Part shown: positions 3,797 through 47,490 of the stretch, piece after piece | Layout: every line of letters begins with the position of its first letter | Numbering within the stretch: position 1 is the first letter of the stretch | Source of the DNA: an uncultured Pseudomonadales bacterium | GTDB lineage: Bacteria; Patescibacteriota; Microgenomatia; UBA1400; MFAQ01 | Direction of reading: 5' to 3' | DNA length: 55,428 bases | Assembly (NCBI GenBank): GCA_964509695.1 | Contig: CAZDXN010000003.1 | Location: 1-55,428 of the forward strand | Notes under the pieces: generated by a model | The model's database searches: none | The model's input: only the letters and a program-made list of their open reading frames with translations | What the model was told of the DNA's origin: nothing | Made by a program: the position numbers and the translations under genes

Positions 3797-4357
3797 AGGA
3801 GTGGTATTGGAGTTTTTTGTCATAATCAGAATATATCAGTTATTTGTATTGTATCGGTCTATTTACTTCTGACATTAGTTAAAAATTTATTTTCATAAAT
3901 ATATGTTTTGATAGAGTATATAGTTTCTGTCTAGTGATATTGATCATTGATTGCAGATTTTGTCTCGCGAAGCGAGATTTAGCTTTGATATTTGAGAACT
4001 TATTTTATTCGTAATTTACGATTTGATGCTGGAGAATTTAATTGTAGGAAGGAATATAGTATATTTATCATATTAGGTGACGGCCGTTCTATTAGAGGAT
4101 ATTGTTAAATATCTTATAGTGGTGATGATTTTTGCTTGTTGGTTGAGTAGAGTTGATTTTCGGACAGTTATTTCATGTAAGTGTCAGTAATCAGCGTGTG
4201 AAAACAGCCTAGGGAGTGAGTTTTCGGGATTGATCTATCGCTTAAAATAGGGAATTGGGTTGTTTAGCGGTTAGTGTACTCGAGTGATAGTTTTGAGGCT
4301 AAACGTTGATGGGGATAGGGATTCAAGATTTAGGATTCAGGATTCAGGAATTATGAG

Positions 4358-5224
4358 TTGCGTGTTCCTGATAAGATACTAGCATATATGGTGAAGAAAA
4401 TGGTTTTGGGGACGCGGGTGGATTTGGTCAGTCAGTCAGAGGCGGTGAATATGGTCTCCGGTTGGATTGAAGTCGGAGGCAAGACCAGAGTAGTAGCAAC
4501 GGCATATAGTGAATTCTTTGTGGCTGCGCTAGGCGACAAAGCCTTTAGAATGGCCCTAGAAGGCTCGGATTTGGTCACCCCTGATGGGATAGGGCCGCTG
4601 GCGGCAATCAGATACCAATTGCTCAGTGCTCAGTGCTCATGGACCATTTGTCATTTGTTAACTGGTTTTAGAGTTGGGGTGGATATTTTGAGAGGGCGGG
4701 TGGGTCAGCCGGTATCCGGATATTGGCTGTTTGAGACTTTGGTAGCGAAAGCGGCCAAGGAGGGCTGGTCGGTGTTCTTGCTGGGAGGATTTGGAGAGAC
4801 GGCGGAGAAGCTTGCACAAAAACTCGAAACTGAAAAAACTCGAAAACTCAAAGTAGAATATGAGGGGGGGGCGCGGAATGAGGCGGAGATGACTGGTGAG
4901 GCAAATGAGGTGGTGATTGAGAAGATAAACAAATTCAAGCCGGATCTGTTGTTTGTGGCCTACGGTCCGGTGAAGCAGGAGAAGTGGTTGGCGGAAAATA
5001 AAGGGAAGTTGAGGGTGAAGGTAGCGATGGGAGTAGGTGGGACGTTTGACGAGGCGCTGGGGTTGGTTCGGGAAGCCCCTGTTGCATTCTCCAAATATGG
5101 TCTAAAATGGTTTTGGCGGCTCCTCCAACAGCCGCAGCGATTGCCCCGTATATTCAAAGCTACCTTTGTGTTTGCTTGGTTGGTCTTTGTCGATTCGCTA
5201 AAAAATAAGAATTTACGAAACTAA
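4358..5224 (+). CDS. WecB/TagA/CpsF family glycosyltransferase (start may be ATG 4388)
   Basis: LVTPDGIG, VFLLGG, INKFKPDLLFVAYGPVKQEKW, MGVGGTFD and GLKWFWRLLQQPQR motifs; carries two short tandem-repeat inserts. Confidence 0.92.
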   Translation: MRVPDKILAYMVKKMVLGTRVDLVSQSEAVNMVSGWIEVGGKTRVVATAYSEFFVAALGDKAFRMALEGSDLVTPDGIGPLAAIRYQLLSAQCSWTICHLLTGFRVGVDILRGRVGQPVSGYWLFETLVAKAAKEGWSVFLLGGFGETAEKLAQKLETEKTRKLKVEYEGGARNEAEMTGEANEVVIEKINKFKPDLLFVAYGPVKQEKWLAENKGKLRVKVAMGVGGTFDEALGLVREAPVAFSKYGLKWFWRLLQQPQRLPRIFKATFVFAWLVFVDSLKNKNLRN

Positions 5225-5246
5225 GAAGTTAGGAATCTACGAATTT
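5207..5246. repeat. Degenerate 8-mer tandem array (AAGAATTT ACGAAACT AAGAAGTT AGGAATCT ACGAATTT)
   Basis: Period-8 array between convergent genes; same family as the array at 42397-42428. Confidence 0.75.
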
Positions 5247-5484
5247 ATTTGGAGATGGGGTTTATTCCGAGCATCCACAGGACGCTTTCTTTTTTGTAGC
5301 GACGGTCGCCGCGGGAGTTGATGCGGATGGCGGGGAGCTTGCCACGCTTGCCCCAGCGCTTGATGGTGAGGGTGGAAACGCGCAGAAGAGTGGCGACTTC
5401 GGAGACGGTCAGCAGGTCGGGGAGGTTGGCGAGATTGACTTCTTGCTTGCCAGCAGGCGGGTCTTTTTTTTCGTTATTGTCCAT
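5245..5484 (-). CDS. Helix-turn-helix DNA-binding protein (MerR/excisionase-like HTH_17)
   Basis: LLTVSEVATLLRVSTLTIKRWGKRGKLPAIRINSRGDRRY. Confidence 0.9.
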   Translation of the reverse strand: MDNNEKKDPPAGKQEVNLANLPDLLTVSEVATLLRVSTLTIKRWGKRGKLPAIRINSRGDRRYKKESVLWMLGINPISK

Positions 5485-15616: not shown

Positions 15617-15735
15617 AATTTTTAATTTTCAGTTTTCAATTTGCAGTGAATTTCCAATTGCCCAATTTATAAATAAGTTTGAAAATTTGGGATTTGAAAA
15701 TTTTTTGGAAATTGTAAATTGATAATTGTAAATTA
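15617..15735. repeat. Two inverted heptamer arrays (TAATTTT/CAATTT.. and AAATTGT..) with no gene inside
   Basis: Left arm TAATTTT TAATTTT CAGTTTT CAATTTG; right arm GAAATTG TAAATTG ATAATTG TAAATT. Confidence 0.7.
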
Positions 15736-40892: not shown

Positions 40893-41651
40893 CTATTGTT
40901 TAAAAAATTGCTCCCTGCGGTAGTCCTCTCGTTTTACTAATAATGCTTTGTGAATTAAGTCAGACCGCTCAAACATTTTTTGACTTTTTCTGTCTCCATA
41001 GCCTTTCAAGGCAAAAGTTGAATGATAGGGAATCATCCCGGCCATCACTCTATTAATATCGCCGATAACTCTAGTTGCCCCTGTATCCATAAAGCTTGCT
41101 ACGGCCTCGATCATACGGGGGTCAACAAAATAGGCATGCTGATAAGTTAGTGCACCAAGTTGGGTTGAAAAAGAACGTATATTTTCTGGACTTTGTTCCG
41201 TGTTTTTTTGCAACTGATACGCGTTTTCAATAAATTCTTTTTGAAGCGCACTTCCACTTTGTTTTATTTGCTGAATGAATTTTTGATCACCAAGCACATT
41301 CTCACAAAACATACGAAAAGCTTCTAGGATCATTTCTGGTCTTTCGAAAATAATATTACAGACCTTGAGGTGTAGTCCATGTCTAGACTCGTGAAGGTAT
41401 GTGTCTGGTCGGTTGCTAAGGCGTGTCATTTGTACCTGTGGTCGCAGAGAACCATTTCTCCCATAACCGGGAGATAAAAACATTGGAGAAATTCCCCCCC
41501 CCGTAAAGTTAATTGAACTTAACAAATCCGATATTTCATCTAAGGTTAATCCAAAGAACTTAGCGGTATTATCATTTTCTAATTTTTCTTTTAGGCTTTG
41601 TAGCCTTTGGCTTGTTTCATTTGTAGTAGTATCTATCTGTCTTTCTGGCAT
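40893..41651 (-). CDS. Hypothetical protein (252 aa) with an HExxH motif
   Basis: YLHESRHGLH; AT-rich relative to its neighbours. Confidence 0.7.
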   Translation of the reverse strand: MPERQIDTTTNETSQRLQSLKEKLENDNTAKFFGLTLDEISDLLSSINFTGGGISPMFLSPGYGRNGSLRPQVQMTRLSNRPDTYLHESRHGLHLKVCNIIFERPEMILEAFRMFCENVLGDQKFIQQIKQSGSALQKEFIENAYQLQKNTEQSPENIRSFSTQLGALTYQHAYFVDPRMIEAVASFMDTGATRVIGDINRVMAGMIPYHSTFALKGYGDRKSQKMFERSDLIHKALLVKREDYRREQFFKQ

Positions 41652-41778
41652 GGTGACCCCTTTCTTGAAACCGTTAAACGACTAACTAAGGTAATTTTAA
41701 CATTTTTCGGAATGCTGCCTGTTATTGTTTTAGACCCATGGTTGATTTTGGGGGAAGAAACAATGATAATATGGTTAT

Positions 41779-42393
41779 ATGAAGAAAATTGTGTTTTCGA
41801 CAGTTTTGGGTTTGGTATTGCTTCTGACCACAGCCAAGGTGGCTGGGGCGAACGAGGGGGTGATTCAGCTAGCTGGTAAAACAGATGCCGATGGGCGGTG
41901 TTTTGCGGTTTCAATCTATGTCGATGGGAACTACAAGCTTCTGATGACCTGCCGGGGCCTCTCGATGGCTCTTGATCCGGTGTTGAACAAGTATATCGTT
42001 TGGGCCAATGTGGGGGAGAATAAGCAGAGGCTGGGTGAGATCGTGAACGGGAAGCTTTCGGCGGTGATTGGGGAGAAATTCGATTCTCTTTTTGTCACTC
42101 TCGAGTCGGATGCTTATTCGAACAAACCTTCGATCAATATGGTTTTGAATGGCAAGGTTGAGCAAATTGATTTTGGAAAAGGAGTCTTTAATTCCAGTTT
42201 GGCGCCTACAGCCATGATAACTCAGGCAGTGAAGCTGGACGATAAGGGCGTGGCTATTGTTCCCACTTCGGCGCCGACAAAGAATCTGACTGGAGCCGTA
42301 GTAGCGATTGGGAAGGCGATTTTGTTTGGATTCATCATCCTGCTGATCATTGTTGGAGTAATGAGCTTTTTGGCGCGAAGGAAGAACCTCTAG
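41779..42393 (+). CDS. Exported protein with a signal peptide and C-terminal TM anchor
   Basis: MKKIVF..AKVAGA signal; C-terminal hydrophobic helix followed by RRK. Confidence 0.85.
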   Translation: MKKIVFSTVLGLVLLLTTAKVAGANEGVIQLAGKTDADGRCFAVSIYVDGNYKLLMTCRGLSMALDPVLNKYIVWANVGENKQRLGEIVNGKLSAVIGEKFDSLFVTLESDAYSNKPSINMVLNGKVEQIDFGKGVFNSSLAPTAMITQAVKLDDKGVAIVPTSAPTKNLTGAVVAIGKAILFGFIILLIIVGVMSFLARRKNL

Positions 42394-42396
42394 AAA

Positions 42397-42428
42397 ACGA
42401 AGGTACGAATATACGAAGTTAGGAATGA
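42397..42428. repeat. 8-mer tandem array, left arm
   Basis: ACGAAGGT ACGAATAT ACGAAGTT AGGAATGA. Confidence 0.85.
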
Positions 42429-42431
42429 AGA

Positions 42432-42806
42432 ATGAGTTACGATAAAATTCAGAGTTTTCGAGATTTGCTTGTTTGGCAACAGGCTCACCAGTTGGTACTA
42501 TCGATATACAAAACAACAAAGACTTTTCCTCGGGAGGAAATGTACTCATTGGTCGATCAGATTAGGAGAGCGGTTGTGTCTGTAACCAGCAACATAGCCG
42601 AGGGTTTTGGCAGGAGGTCTTACAAGGAAAAATTACAGTTTTATAATCTAGCTATGGGTTCGTTGACGGAGGTTGAGAATCAAATTGATATCAGCCACGA
42701 CCTCGGATATATTTCTCGAGCATCATATGACGAATTCGTTGAGAGAATATTGTCGGTGAAAAAGTTACTTAATCGTTTAATGACGGCTACGAAATCTTAT
42801 TCGTAG
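42432..42806 (+). CDS. Four-helix-bundle protein (23S rRNA IVS protein / bAvd-like family)
   Basis: FRDLLVWQQAH..FPREEMYSLVDQIRRAVVSVTSNIAEG..FYNLAMGSLTEV. Confidence 0.95.
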   Translation: MSYDKIQSFRDLLVWQQAHQLVLSIYKTTKTFPREEMYSLVDQIRRAVVSVTSNIAEGFGRRSYKEKLQFYNLAMGSLTEVENQIDISHDLGYISRASYDEFVERILSVKKLLNRLMTATKSYS

Positions 42807-42836
42807 ATTCGTATATTCGTGAATTCGTAACTTCGT
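42797..42836. repeat. 8-mer tandem array, right arm (inverted relative to the left arm)
   Basis: TTATTCGT AGATTCGT ATATTCGT GAATTCGT AACTTCGT. Confidence 0.85.
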
Positions 42837-42842
42837 TGGCTT

Positions 42843-43436
42843 TTAGCCGAGGAGGAGGTGCGAGATAAAGGCAATAGCGGGGGAAATCAGAGAGATCACT
42901 GGAGACGTGCCGAAGAGGGGGAGAATCATGAAGATGAGGATGATGGTGCCGTAGCGGCTCATGACGGCTTGATATTCGTAGGCAAGATCGCGAGGAAGGA
43001 TGGCGGCGAGGATTTTCTCACCATCAAGAGGATAGACGGGGACGAGATTGAAGATGGCCAGGGAGATATTCAAAATAATGACGGCGTAAAAAAAGGGAAA
43101 AAGGTAAATTGGCAGAGGGAATAGTCGAAGGCCAAGACTAAGAAGAATGGCCAGAAGGAGATTACTGGCAGGACCAGCGATGGAAATGATTCCGGCGTCG
43201 CGTCTAGGGTGGGCGAGGTTGTATGGGTCGAAGATAACAGGCTTGCCCCAACCGAAGTGAACCAAGAAAAGCATGAGTGTCCCCAAGGGGTCAAGGTGGG
43301 CGAGAGGATTTAAGGTGAGCCGGCCTTGTGACCGCGGGGTGGGGTCACCCAGCCGATCGGCGGCCAGAGCGTGAGAGAACTCGTGGATGGTGATAGCGAT
43401 GACGAGTCCAAAAACCAGATAAAGTGTTTCAACCAT
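42843..43436 (-). CDS. Site-2 protease family (M50) membrane metalloprotease
   Basis: IHEFSHA, NPLAHLD, AGPASN and FNLVPVYPLDG. Confidence 0.95.
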   Translation of the reverse strand: MVETLYLVFGLVIAITIHEFSHALAADRLGDPTPRSQGRLTLNPLAHLDPLGTLMLFLVHFGWGKPVIFDPYNLAHPRRDAGIISIAGPASNLLLAILLSLGLRLFPLPIYLFPFFYAVIILNISLAIFNLVPVYPLDGEKILAAILPRDLAYEYQAVMSRYGTIILIFMILPLFGTSPVISLISPAIAFISHLLLG

Positions 43437-43473
43437 GGATAAAGTATACAGGAATATGTTAGAATATGTGCCT

Positions 43474-43704
43474 ATGGAGAAGAAGAGATATGCGTGTGAT
43501 TTTTGCGGTAAGGGGGTTCAGAACTCAAATTTGGTCAGTTTTTCGAAGAATCGGGTTCACAAAGTTCGCCGTCCGAATCTGCACGCTCACAAAATGAAGA
43601 TCGAGGGCGAGGCGGTTCATTTGAAGCTTTGTACTTCGTGCAAGAGGACGGTTCGGGCTTCTGAAAAAGTAGTGAAACCGGTGGCGGCGGTAAGTGCTCA
43701 CTGA
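43474..43704 (+). CDS. rpmB: 50S ribosomal protein L28
   Basis: CDFCGKG..NLVSFSKNRVHKVRRPNLH..LCTSCKR; TAGAAT is 8 nt before ATG 43474. Confidence 0.92.
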   Translation: MEKKRYACDFCGKGVQNSNLVSFSKNRVHKVRRPNLHAHKMKIEGEAVHLKLCTSCKRTVRASEKVVKPVAAVSAH

Positions 43705-44461
43705 CGAGACGCTTCCCAGGTTTTTGAGGCGAAATACGACGCTAGACGGCGGGTATCATCGGGAGGGATTTTCATTCGGAGATTTTTGGCCGGTCGGGGA
43801 TTTCTTTCCCGGGATGCATTTTGGTGAGACGACACCAGGAAATGAGGTGACGGTGGTCTGTCGGAGTTTGGGTGAGCCGGTCGGGGCGGTAGTGACGGAT
43901 AAAGAGGTTAGAGTTTGTTGTGACAATCGGGTGATGGCGATTTACGATCGAAGTTCTGGGGCACTGACCAGCGCCAGCTTTAGTTTGGCGCAGGCATTTT
44001 TGGAGATGAGCCGGTATGATGTTCGAGCAAATCAGGAAACAATCAAATTTCTTGCTCAGCTGATTCGAGGTGGGGATGATCTGGCGGTGGTCATAAAATT
44101 TGATAAAGACGGTGAGGCAAGAGGAACGGTGGTTTTGTCCGATCGAGCCGGGGTTTGCCGGCCCTTGGTGGCGGCGAAAATGGTAGATCTGGTATTGGAG
44201 GAGGATGATGAGGGAGATGAGGAGACGGATGAGTTACTGCAGGCATGGCATTGTATCAGTCCTGTAGGAAAGATCGATTTTTGTGTTGGCATCAGAGTTT
44301 TTTCTTTGGACCTGATGATTTTCAACTCAACTTCCGGGGAGGTGACGCTGTTTCATGTTGCTCAGATGCTTGATTTTTCTGTTTTGGACCAAGAGAGAGT
44401 CAGTCCCGGTTTGATGTTGGATTTAGCGACAGATGCGTTTCCGGGAATGGATTGGGTGTAG
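43694..44461 (+). CDS. Hypothetical protein, tandem paralogue 1 (start uncertain)
   Basis: YDRSSGAL and GGDDLAVVIKF motifs shared with the next two ORFs. Confidence 0.75.
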   Translation: MLTDETLPRFLRRNTTLDGGYHREGFSFGDFWPVGDFFPGMHFGETTPGNEVTVVCRSLGEPVGAVVTDKEVRVCCDNRVMAIYDRSSGALTSASFSLAQAFLEMSRYDVRANQETIKFLAQLIRGGDDLAVVIKFDKDGEARGTVVLSDRAGVCRPLVAAKMVDLVLEEDDEGDEETDELLQAWHCISPVGKIDFCVGIRVFSLDLMIFNSTSGEVTLFHVAQMLDFSVLDQERVSPGLMLDLATDAFPGMDWV

Positions 44462-45958: not shown

Positions 45959-46927
45959 GATGGGGGTTTTGCCGGGAAGTTGAACTAGATCAATTTTCAA
46001 TTTACAATTTTTAATTTTCAAATAATTTTCAAGAGAGGTTCGAATAATTTTCAATTCAAGATTGCCAATTTTCGTCCAGGCGCCGGGATCGGGATTCAGT
46101 GAACGAATCAATGCATGAATTCGTTCACATTTGACATTGCTCATTTGACATTGCTCATTTGACATTTGAGATTTTTCAAGACATGGTTTTATTTCTTCCC
46201 AGGGGATGAAGGCGGATTGGCGGTTTCTGGTTTTGGTGGTAGAGGTGTAGGTGGCGAGGGTTTCGTTTTGGTGGGTTAGAAGAACCTCACCCCGTCCCTC
46301 CCCTTGATAAGGGGAGGGAGAAGAGGGAGAGGTAAGTGAGGATATTTTGGGAAGGTACTCGGCGAGGAGTTTAATGCCGCCTTGGGTAAGTTTGTTCGTC
46401 AGAGTTTCACAATTGTCGTTTATATCAATACTAACTTTTTCTTGGGAAATGATTGGTCCGGTATCCATTCCCTCATCCATAGCCATCAGGGTGACGCCGG
46501 TTTCGGAGTCCTGATTTTTGATCGCCTCGCTGATACACAGGGCGCCGCGGTATTTGGGAAGCAGAGAAAAGTGGAGGTTAAAGGTGCCGATAGTGGAAGC
46601 GGTCAACCAAGGCTTTGGAATGATCTTGCCGTAACTGACGACGAGAAAGAGATCGGGTTTTAGGAGTTTGAGGTGGGCCAGGTTTGCCTCGTCGAGTTTC
46701 TCGGGTTTGAAAACTGGGAGATTGTATTCGGTAGCGAGTTGGGCGACGGGAGACGGAGTCAGGATTTGTTTCCGACCGAGGGGTTTGTCGGGTTGTGTGA
46801 CTACCCCCGCGAGGCAGAAAAGGACCCCCTCTTTATCTCCCCCTTCGCTAGGGGGAGAGTTTTTTATTAGGGATTCGAGGATTTCGGCGGAGAAGGCGGG
46901 AGAGCCGAAGTAGACTAGGTTCGTCAT
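45908..46927 (-). CDS. fmt: Methionyl-tRNA formyltransferase with several repeat-derived inserts
   Basis: VVTQPDKPLGR, VVSYGKII, NLHFSLLPKYRGA, MDEGMDTGPI and IRSLNPDPGAW. Confidence 0.96.
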   Translation of the reverse strand: MTNLVYFGSPAFSAEILESLIKNSPPSEGGDKEGVLFCLAGVVTQPDKPLGRKQILTPSPVAQLATEYNLPVFKPEKLDEANLAHLKLLKPDLFLVVSYGKIIPKPWLTASTIGTFNLHFSLLPKYRGALCISEAIKNQDSETGVTLMAMDEGMDTGPIISQEKVSIDINDNCETLTNKLTQGGIKLLAEYLPKISSLTSPSSPSPYQGEGRGEVLLTHQNETLATYTSTTKTRNRQSAFIPWEEIKPCLEKSQMSNEQCQMSNVKCERIHALIRSLNPDPGAWTKIGNLELKIIRTSLENYLKIKNCKLKIDLVQLPGKTPISWQQFQSRTDPTKSAI

Positions 46928-47490
46928 AGGTTGATTGGCGAGAGGCCGTTTTCAGTTTCGCACAGGATTTGGCCCTTTTGTTCGATAATCCGGTCAGTGA
47001 AGAGGATGCCGTTGAGGTGATCGATTTCGTGCTGGATGTAGGCGGAGGAGACGTCACTGAATTCTTCAGTGACAGTTGACAGTTGACAGTTGACAGTTGA
47101 CAGTATGGGTATTTGGTATTGGAGTTTGATGGAGTAGGGACGGTCGACGAATCCCCAGATCTTGGGGATGGAGAGACAGCCTTCGAGCCAGCGGTCCTTC
47201 TTCTTTTTGTAGACGGAGCTAAGCATTTTCTGACTGATGGTGATGATTTCGGGGTTAATGAAGACCTTGGTGGTTTGTCTTTCCTCATCAAGGAGAATAA
47301 AGAGGCGTTTGTCGAGGCCAACTTGAGTGGCGGCCAGACCAACGCCCTTGGGATTGGTGGTGTGTTTGAGGATTTCTGCCATTTGGGCCACTTCTTTGGC
47401 GGTTTTCTTGTCCCAACCACGAATAGGCTTGGCCTTGTGCTTTAGGAATGAATGGGGTGTAGTCAGAATCTGCATATGGTCAGTTTTCAT
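46924..47490 (-). CDS. def: Peptide deformylase
   Basis: GVGLAATQVG, EGCLSIP and QHEIDHLNG; (GACAGTT)n insert at 47071-47105. Confidence 0.97.
   Translation of the reverse strand: MKTDHMQILTTPHSFLKHKAKPIRGWDKKTAKEVAQMAEILKHTTNPKGVGLAATQVGLDKRLFILLDEERQTTKVFINPEIITISQKMLSSVYKKKKDRWLEGCLSIPKIWGFVDRPYSIKLQYQIPILSTVNCQLSTVTEEFSDVSSAYIQHEIDHLNGILFTDRIIEQKGQILCETENGLSPINL

Follow-up and report, generated by a model that had tools for sequence, protein, structure and literature searches.

Intervening sequences (IVSs) of 23S rRNA in Leptospira and Coxiella burnetii carry an S23p (PF05635) open reading frame in a loop closed by terminal inverted repeats of about 28 bp; these elements are about 430-450 nt long, are regarded as selfish inserts, and are cut by RNase III in the stem (PMC4990558). 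Independently, tandem heptanucleotide repeats have been catalogued for decades without an accepted role. Cyanobacterial STRRs are described as 7-bp repeats able to form hairpins, with a function "still not known" (PMC2670836), and Rehm et al. 2015 described GGGAATC repeats in Xanthomonas, with 186 sites in Xcc, mostly of four units, including 70 inverted pairs (PMC4692102). Other systems bearing on the present locus include the accessory variability determinant (Avd/bAvd) of diversity-generating retroelements (DGRs), whose homology to this protein family is noted in PMC10053308; REP/REPIN-RAYT systems, in which a small gene is flanked by inverted copies of a short repeat that is also scattered through intergenic regions as hairpins; hok mRNA, in which long-range pairing of the mRNA ends (fbi) silences translation; and the H. 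influenzae hmw1A 7-nt SSR, whose effect depends on a 5'-UTR RNA element targeted by RNase III (PMC12721329).

Here we show that a 124-residue four-helix-bundle gene lies within a 453-nt insertion whose two ends are mirror-image arrays of 8-nt units, and that the same layout, usually with 7-nt units, surrounds relatives of this gene in five bacterial phyla. The stretch analysed (hereafter the window) comprises 55,428 nt from a Patescibacteria MAG (GCA_016183355.1). The original prediction, made from sequence alone, described an IVS/bAvd-like gene enclosed by inverted 8-mer arrays, between ordinary genes without a reverse transcriptase, as a candidate minimal mobile or excisable unit, and proposed that its protein binds or propagates the arrays. 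Its observation is confirmed, with two corrections given below, whereas its interpretation is supported only in part. Full-text literature searches returned no paper linking this protein family to flanking arrays, although absence from the library searched does not prove that none has been published.

Anatomy of the cassette

The ORF at 42432-42806 (+) encodes 124 aa and matches PF05635 (23S_rRNA_IVP) at E 8.6e-39 (132.5 bits, cutoff 33.8; residues 10-114 on profile positions 1-105 of 106) and TIGR02436 (four helix bundle protein) at E 4e-36 (123.5 bits, cutoff 24). Matches to bAvd (PF22296, 31.2 bits) and DGR Avd (NF033474, 31.3 bits) fall below the curated cutoffs of 40 and 80, respectively, and no RVT family is found among the genes called within 10 kb on either side. 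The closest solved structure is 2GSC (Xanthomonas XCC0516, five chains in the entry; E 3.6e-20). PADLOC defence models gave no hit, and a tblastn search against phage genomes gave no match.

The whole insertion unit (42394-42846, +; 453 nt) consists of a spacer, the left array, the ORF, the right array, a spacer, and a second TAG. The first TAG (42391-42393) is the stop codon of the co-oriented upstream gene, which encodes a 204-aa membrane protein. Three bases after it, a purine-rich 8-mer array begins with the units ACGAAGGT, ACGAATAT, ACGAAGTT and AGGAAT (42397-42426), ending 5 nt before the ATG. The right array (42798-42837) consists of five NNNTTCGT units (TRF period 8, 4.8 copies), which are the reverse complement of the left arm; it starts in the last codons of the ORF, and its first two units span the ORF's stop codon (42804-42806). 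The second TAG lies at 42844-42846, and TTA at 42843-42845 is the stop codon of a convergent M50 peptidase gene. The arms 42396-42426 and 42807-42837 are 31 nt long and 81% complementary, and also pair in several registers shifted by 8 nt. When 42390-42848 was folded as RNA, this stem enclosed the whole ORF in both the MFE and the centroid structure (z = -3.0; 0 of 100 shuffles as stable). A promoter scan found no promoter-like site in the 38-nt spacer, a terminator scan found none nearby, and Rfam gave no match in 41000-44000 at E <= 1. The two corrections are that the 8-nt period is atypical, the family norm being 7 nt, and that the arms overlap the ORF, with the ATG region just after the left array and the stop codon inside the right array.

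The remaining arrays listed in the original prediction also exist (4319-4349, 5202-5247, 15617-15734, and arrays inside CDSs). A solo 8-mer array of the same ACGAAnnT/AGGAAnnT family (5202-5247, +) fills the gap between a wecG-like gene (4358-5224), whose last codons are array-encoded, and a convergent excisionase-like HTH gene (5245-5484); it may be a footprint of a lost cassette or a seed, although a relationship to the cassette is unproven. At 15617-15734, a gene-less hairpin of inverted heptamer arrays (AATTTTC... / ...GAAAATT, TTGTAAA) lies between two minus-strand genes, with its pyrimidine arm first; this polarity is opposite to that of the gene cassette, and the hairpin is therefore not a simple gene-deletion derivative. 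Heptamer arrays also lie in-frame inside essential genes: (TGACAGT)5 in def (47070-47104) encodes LSTVNCQLSTV, and arrays in the 3' part of fmt (45990-46174) encode QMSNEQCQMSNVKC and LKIKNCKLKIDL. In addition, a palindromic element of about 45 nt (CCTCACC..CCCTCCCCTTGATAAGGGGAGGG..GGGAGAGGTG) occurs at least 6 times in the window (266, 2033, 3393, 39784, 46296 and 50529), with two copies in-frame inside coding sequences, in the Elp3-like radical SAM gene and in fmt, which recalls Rickettsia palindromic elements.

Flanking arrays across the gene family

To test whether homologues generally carry flanking inverted short-period arrays, as the original prediction required, homologous loci from 80 other Patescibacteria species were retrieved (individual loci are designated by L numbers). 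Nearly every one has a purine-rich short-period array running into the ATG and its reverse complement starting in the last codons. The best complementary segment between the 5' and 3' flanks has a median score of 15.5 in 81 homologues, compared to 6.0 in 820 same-spacing control pairs from the same loci, and exceeds the control 99th percentile in 84% of genes; chance therefore does not explain it. Using gene boundaries as the control, a score of 12 or more is reached by 86% of 73 PF05635 genes but only 6.4% of 343 other ORFs in the same loci, and 4 of these "other" positives are divergent PF05635 genes. The period is 7 in 48 of 75 upstream and 54 of 75 downstream arrays. Arm length is tightly set (median 4.1 and 4.3 units, IQR 3.6-4.9; arms about 26 nt), and the arrays are in register with the start codon, the consensus A-T-G-A-A-T-T recurring at 0, -7, -14 and -21. 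The upstream arm is G-rich and C-poor (G 433, C 104) and the downstream arm is its mirror image. While unit sequences differ widely between loci, the two arms of a locus match each other, with a median duplex energy of -27 kcal/mol compared to -13.7 for shuffled arms.

It should be noted, however, that heptamer arrays are also common away from these genes. Tandem repeats were called with TRF, as a more stringent detector missed most arrays; in 384 kb of these genomes, period 7 (and 14) dominates all tandem repeats, and of 307 arrays, 141 lie near the genes and 166 away from them, including gene-less hairpins of either polarity. The protein is therefore not needed locally for an array to exist. 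Other small genes are also bracketed by inverted arrays or inverted repeats (L012:146-535, L052:3943-4320, L066:4648-4938(-), L037:950-1414, L120, L119), namely PDDEXK_3/"GxxExxY" nucleases, a 96-aa GIY-YIG nuclease and a DUF5680 protein, which suggests a guild of small genes living in stem-loop cassettes.

The layout crosses phyla with very different G+C content. Plasmid-borne homologues in Cyanobacteriota show the same arrangement, with units such as GGGAAAA/TTTTCCC, CAGGTGA/TCACCTG and CAGGAGT/ACTCCTG, as do a Riemerella homologue (Bacteroidota) and one in GC-rich Gemmatirosa (Gemmatimonadota; CAGGAGG/CCTCCTG). One exception, on a Pseudanabaena plasmid (L083), has long arrays in direct rather than inverted orientation, (AAAAGCT)n upstream and (AAAAGCC)n downstream. 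In Xanthomonas, Stenotrophomonas and Dyella (L122-L130), the orthologue of the crystallised protein sits between accB and accC; (GGGAATC)n runs into its start codon, CCCATTC/CCTATTC units end in accC's ATG, which is the last triplet of the right array, and there is no obvious Shine-Dalgarno sequence. The Xanthomonas arrays are the GGGAATC repeats of Rehm et al. (PMC4692102), in whose text the words "four helix", "S23" and "intervening" do not occur.

The layout recurs inside essential or tight operons without disrupting them, and insertion sites recur: accB-X-accC across Xanthomonadales, porD-X-porA in three species (L035, L043, L067), cas6-X-cas4 and cas10-X-cmr3 in cyanobacteria (L083, L085, L090), and, in six species (L020, L044, L047, L055, L071, L074), directly upstream of one conserved gene whose product begins MRFQVPQFIEVEDK. 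The upstream neighbour is co-oriented in 65 of 71 loci (92%) against a 74% baseline (p = 2e-4), with a median gap of 37 nt, while the downstream neighbour shows no bias.

Gain and loss of the array-gene-array unit

Nineteen metagenomic loci orthologous to the upstream gene show four states at this site. L106 (flanking proteins 97% and 98.5% identical) and the more distant L092 are empty, with neither gene nor arrays, and the two convergent stop codons overlap as TTAG; these loci read CTTTAG followed directly by CCGAG, where the window reads CTCTAG, then 453 nt ending in CTTTTAG, then CCGAGG. The window and L093 are occupied. L108 retains only a 16-nt footprint, ATTCTTAGATTCCTAT, which resembles the first two right-arm units. 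Other relatives carry unrelated inserts (a PIN toxin-antitoxin pair and others), none with arrays. Because the empty state is shared by a near and a far relative, the insertion is the derived state. With flanking arrays general among homologues and empty sites lacking both gene and arrays, calling the element a minimal insertable unit is justified, as is the analogy to rRNA IVS stem-loops that carry the same protein family. TAG (perhaps TTTAG/TCTAG) is repeated at both junctions of this one site with an empty allele, but it could be selected, because both neighbours need a stop codon, rather than being a mechanistic target duplication. In L108, the M50 and L28 genes are 99.5-100% identical to the window while the upstream gene is only 75% identical, with the switch falling exactly at the footprint, reflecting either a recombination breakpoint or a chimeric contig. 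The GenBank assembly of the same population (L001) lacks 105 nt (window 42828-42932), comprising the end of the right arm and the 3' end of the M50 peptidase gene, which is either an array-associated deletion or an assembly difference.

The close relatives L093 and L002 carry three more left-arm units than the window, although their ORFs are 98-99% identical to the window's, with four synonymous changes and one non-synonymous change (against L093). The arrays therefore change much faster than the protein, which is under purifying selection. For two pairs of homologues with 74% aa identity in unrelated genomic contexts (L062/L074 and L019/L031), 70-80% DNA identity spans array, ORF and array and collapses at the outer array edges, and arm similarity rises with protein identity. 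Recent mobility is not shown: there is one copy in the window, no near-identical copies in different sites were found, and the next relative after 98% identity is 65% identical.

Interpretation and comparison with described systems

We favour, at about even confidence, an IVS-type stem-loop cassette that lives in operons instead of rRNA. In this view, the cassette has no room for its own promoter and would be transcribed by read-through from the co-oriented upstream gene. In that transcript the 5' array, which ends 5 nt before the start codon here and includes it in most relatives, would pair with the 3' array containing the stop codon, giving a closing stem of about 26-31 bp with the whole ORF in the loop. 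Such a stem would hide the initiation region, limiting translation to the time before the 3' arm is made, as in the fold-back of hok mRNA, and would offer a double-stranded site of the size that RNase III cuts in rRNA IVSs, so that the insert could be cut away from its host's cistrons. In phyla that use Shine-Dalgarno sequences, the left units look like SD motifs (AGGAG) and the right units like the anti-SD (CCTCC), which fits sequestration of the initiation region. Because the arms are tandem arrays able to pair in many registers, frequent unit gains and losses by slippage would not destroy the stem. The cassette itself would be gained and lost as a unit at gene boundaries. Our analysis establishes the anatomy, its generality, the co-variation of the arms, the insertion polymorphism, the cassette-limited similarity and the upstream co-orientation; pairing in vivo, RNase III cleavage or any other RNA-level excision, translational control, what the protein does (including any activity on the arrays) and the enzyme that moves the cassette are inferred. 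Arm mismatches carry no RNA signature (G.U 58, A.C 62, other 199), and sense and antisense duplex energies do not differ (p = 0.11), such that the sequence alone does not distinguish action as RNA from action as DNA, and complementarity could be kept by a DNA-level process or simply be young. Furthermore, the stem is imperfect, made of 5-bp cores interrupted by mismatches, and may be a poor RNase III substrate; the model does not explain why the period is 7; and part of the pattern may be a general property of the genome.

Three alternatives are considered less likely. The arrays could be terminal inverted repeats, or hairpins on single-stranded DNA, used by a recombinase acting in trans, such as a Y1/HUH transposase of the RAYT type or with the four-helix-bundle protein as an accessory factor, in which case RNA pairing would be incidental. 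The clean 453-nt indel with its repeated TAG, the footprint in L108, the cassette-limited similarity, the lack of G.U bias, the gene-less hairpins resembling non-autonomous derivatives, the IS200-like Y1 genes flanked by inverted REP-like repeats in the same genomes (L017, L036), and the spread of one Xanthomonas unit over about 186 sites are consistent with this possibility. However, in Patescibacteria the unit differs from locus to locus, leaving no common recognition site, no multi-copy near-identical family was seen, and the cassette contains no transposase; the arms coincide exactly with the start and stop codons in register with the ATG, which a transposase end does not require, co-orientation with the upstream gene only points to dependence on transcription, and orthologous sites such as accB-accC are kept over order-level divergence. 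More doubtful is that the pentameric protein binds its own 4-5 tandem units, as RNA or DNA, one unit per subunit, autoregulating the gene or packaging the transcript in the way that ring proteins read spaced repeats (TRAP; HutP, whose UAG triplets recur every 7 nt), with arm complementarity being secondary. The narrow copy number (which also fits a minimal RNase III substrate), the predominance of four units in Xanthomonas arrays, the five chains of 2GSC, the co-divergence of arms and protein, and a Nostoc study postulating an unidentified protein that binds heptamer repeats (bioRxiv 10.1101/2022.06.06.494920) favour it, and the homologue Avd is a nucleic-acid-binding pentamer. Conversely, units range from ATGAATT to GGGAATC to CAGGAGG while the protein keeps 25 invariant columns, such that specific recognition would need rapid co-evolution at a few positions; the model also leaves the complementarity of the two arms unexplained, and arrays are abundant away from the gene.

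Least likely is that the arrays are a functionless by-product of high heptamer slippage, with any short inverted repeat or intergenic spacer next to a small inserted gene drifting into arrays. The dominance of period 7 (and 14) in 384 kb of these genomes, the location of more than half of the arrays away from PF05635 genes, the in-frame arrays in def and fmt, the copy-number differences between 98-99% identical relatives, and the attribution of heptamer excess to polymerase slippage (PMC4692102) agree with this, but the specificity of 86% against 6% within the same loci, arm complementarity, which tandem arrays alone need not have, register with the ATG, tight length distribution, recurrence in five phyla, and the absence of arrays from other inserts at the same site argue against it. 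G-quadruplex formation cannot be the general explanation, because most Patescibacteria units (for example ATGAATT) have no G tracts, and promoter-spacing phase variation is unlikely, because the spacer holds no promoter-like site. A more speculative possibility, which we consider improbable on present evidence, is that the four-helix-bundle proteins are the long-sought partners of bacterial heptamer repeats, each pentamer reading about five tandem units of its own arms, and that gene plus arrays form a previously unrecognised class of mobile cassette that seeds and spreads STRR/GGGAATC-type arrays, including gene-less hairpins and in-frame arrays in genes, through genomes of at least five phyla.

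PF05635 is a very large family of unknown function, with 24,744 clusters at 50% identity having E <= 1e-3. If the family and the heptanucleotide repeats belong to one unit, the rRNA IVS would be one special habitat of a much more widespread stem-loop cassette, reported associations of this protein with CRISPR adaptation modules (PMC10910872) may simply reflect cassettes inserted in cas operons, and the question becomes testable in a tractable organism with a solved structure, at the Xanthomonas accB-X-accC locus. The finding also warns annotators that start codons, stop codons and the ends of neighbouring genes lie inside fast-changing arrays.

With respect to described systems, the protein is a clear member of PF05635/TIGR02436, and its fold is homologous to that of Avd, but the sub-threshold scores and the absence of a reverse transcriptase among the neighbouring genes indicate that it is not a DGR component. 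The element is not a classical insertion sequence, MITE or REPIN. It has the terminal inverted repeats of an insertion sequence or MITE but neither multiple near-identical copies nor an encoded transposase, its only ORF being the four-helix bundle. It differs from REPIN-RAYT systems in that the enclosed gene is not a Y1 transposase, the repeats are tandem arrays rather than single palindromes, and, in Patescibacteria, the unit is locus-specific. The hok and hmw1A elements are functional analogies only, involving unrelated genes and no inverted arrays. The arrays belong to the same sequence class as cyanobacterial STRRs and Xanthomonas GGGAATC repeats, being intergenic tandem 7-mers (8-mers in the window), usually of about four units and often in inverted pairs; the papers describing those repeats treat them on their own, as G-quadruplexes or regulators, and in the full texts searched do not mention the four-helix-bundle gene between paired arrays. 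Finally, the cassette shares with the rRNA IVS its protein family, its size and a predicted stem of about 20-30 bp that encloses the ORF. Its arms are tandem arrays of 7-8-nt units that overlap the start and stop codons, and it lies between protein-coding genes rather than in helix 9, 25 or 45 of 23S rRNA, the defining location of an IVS.
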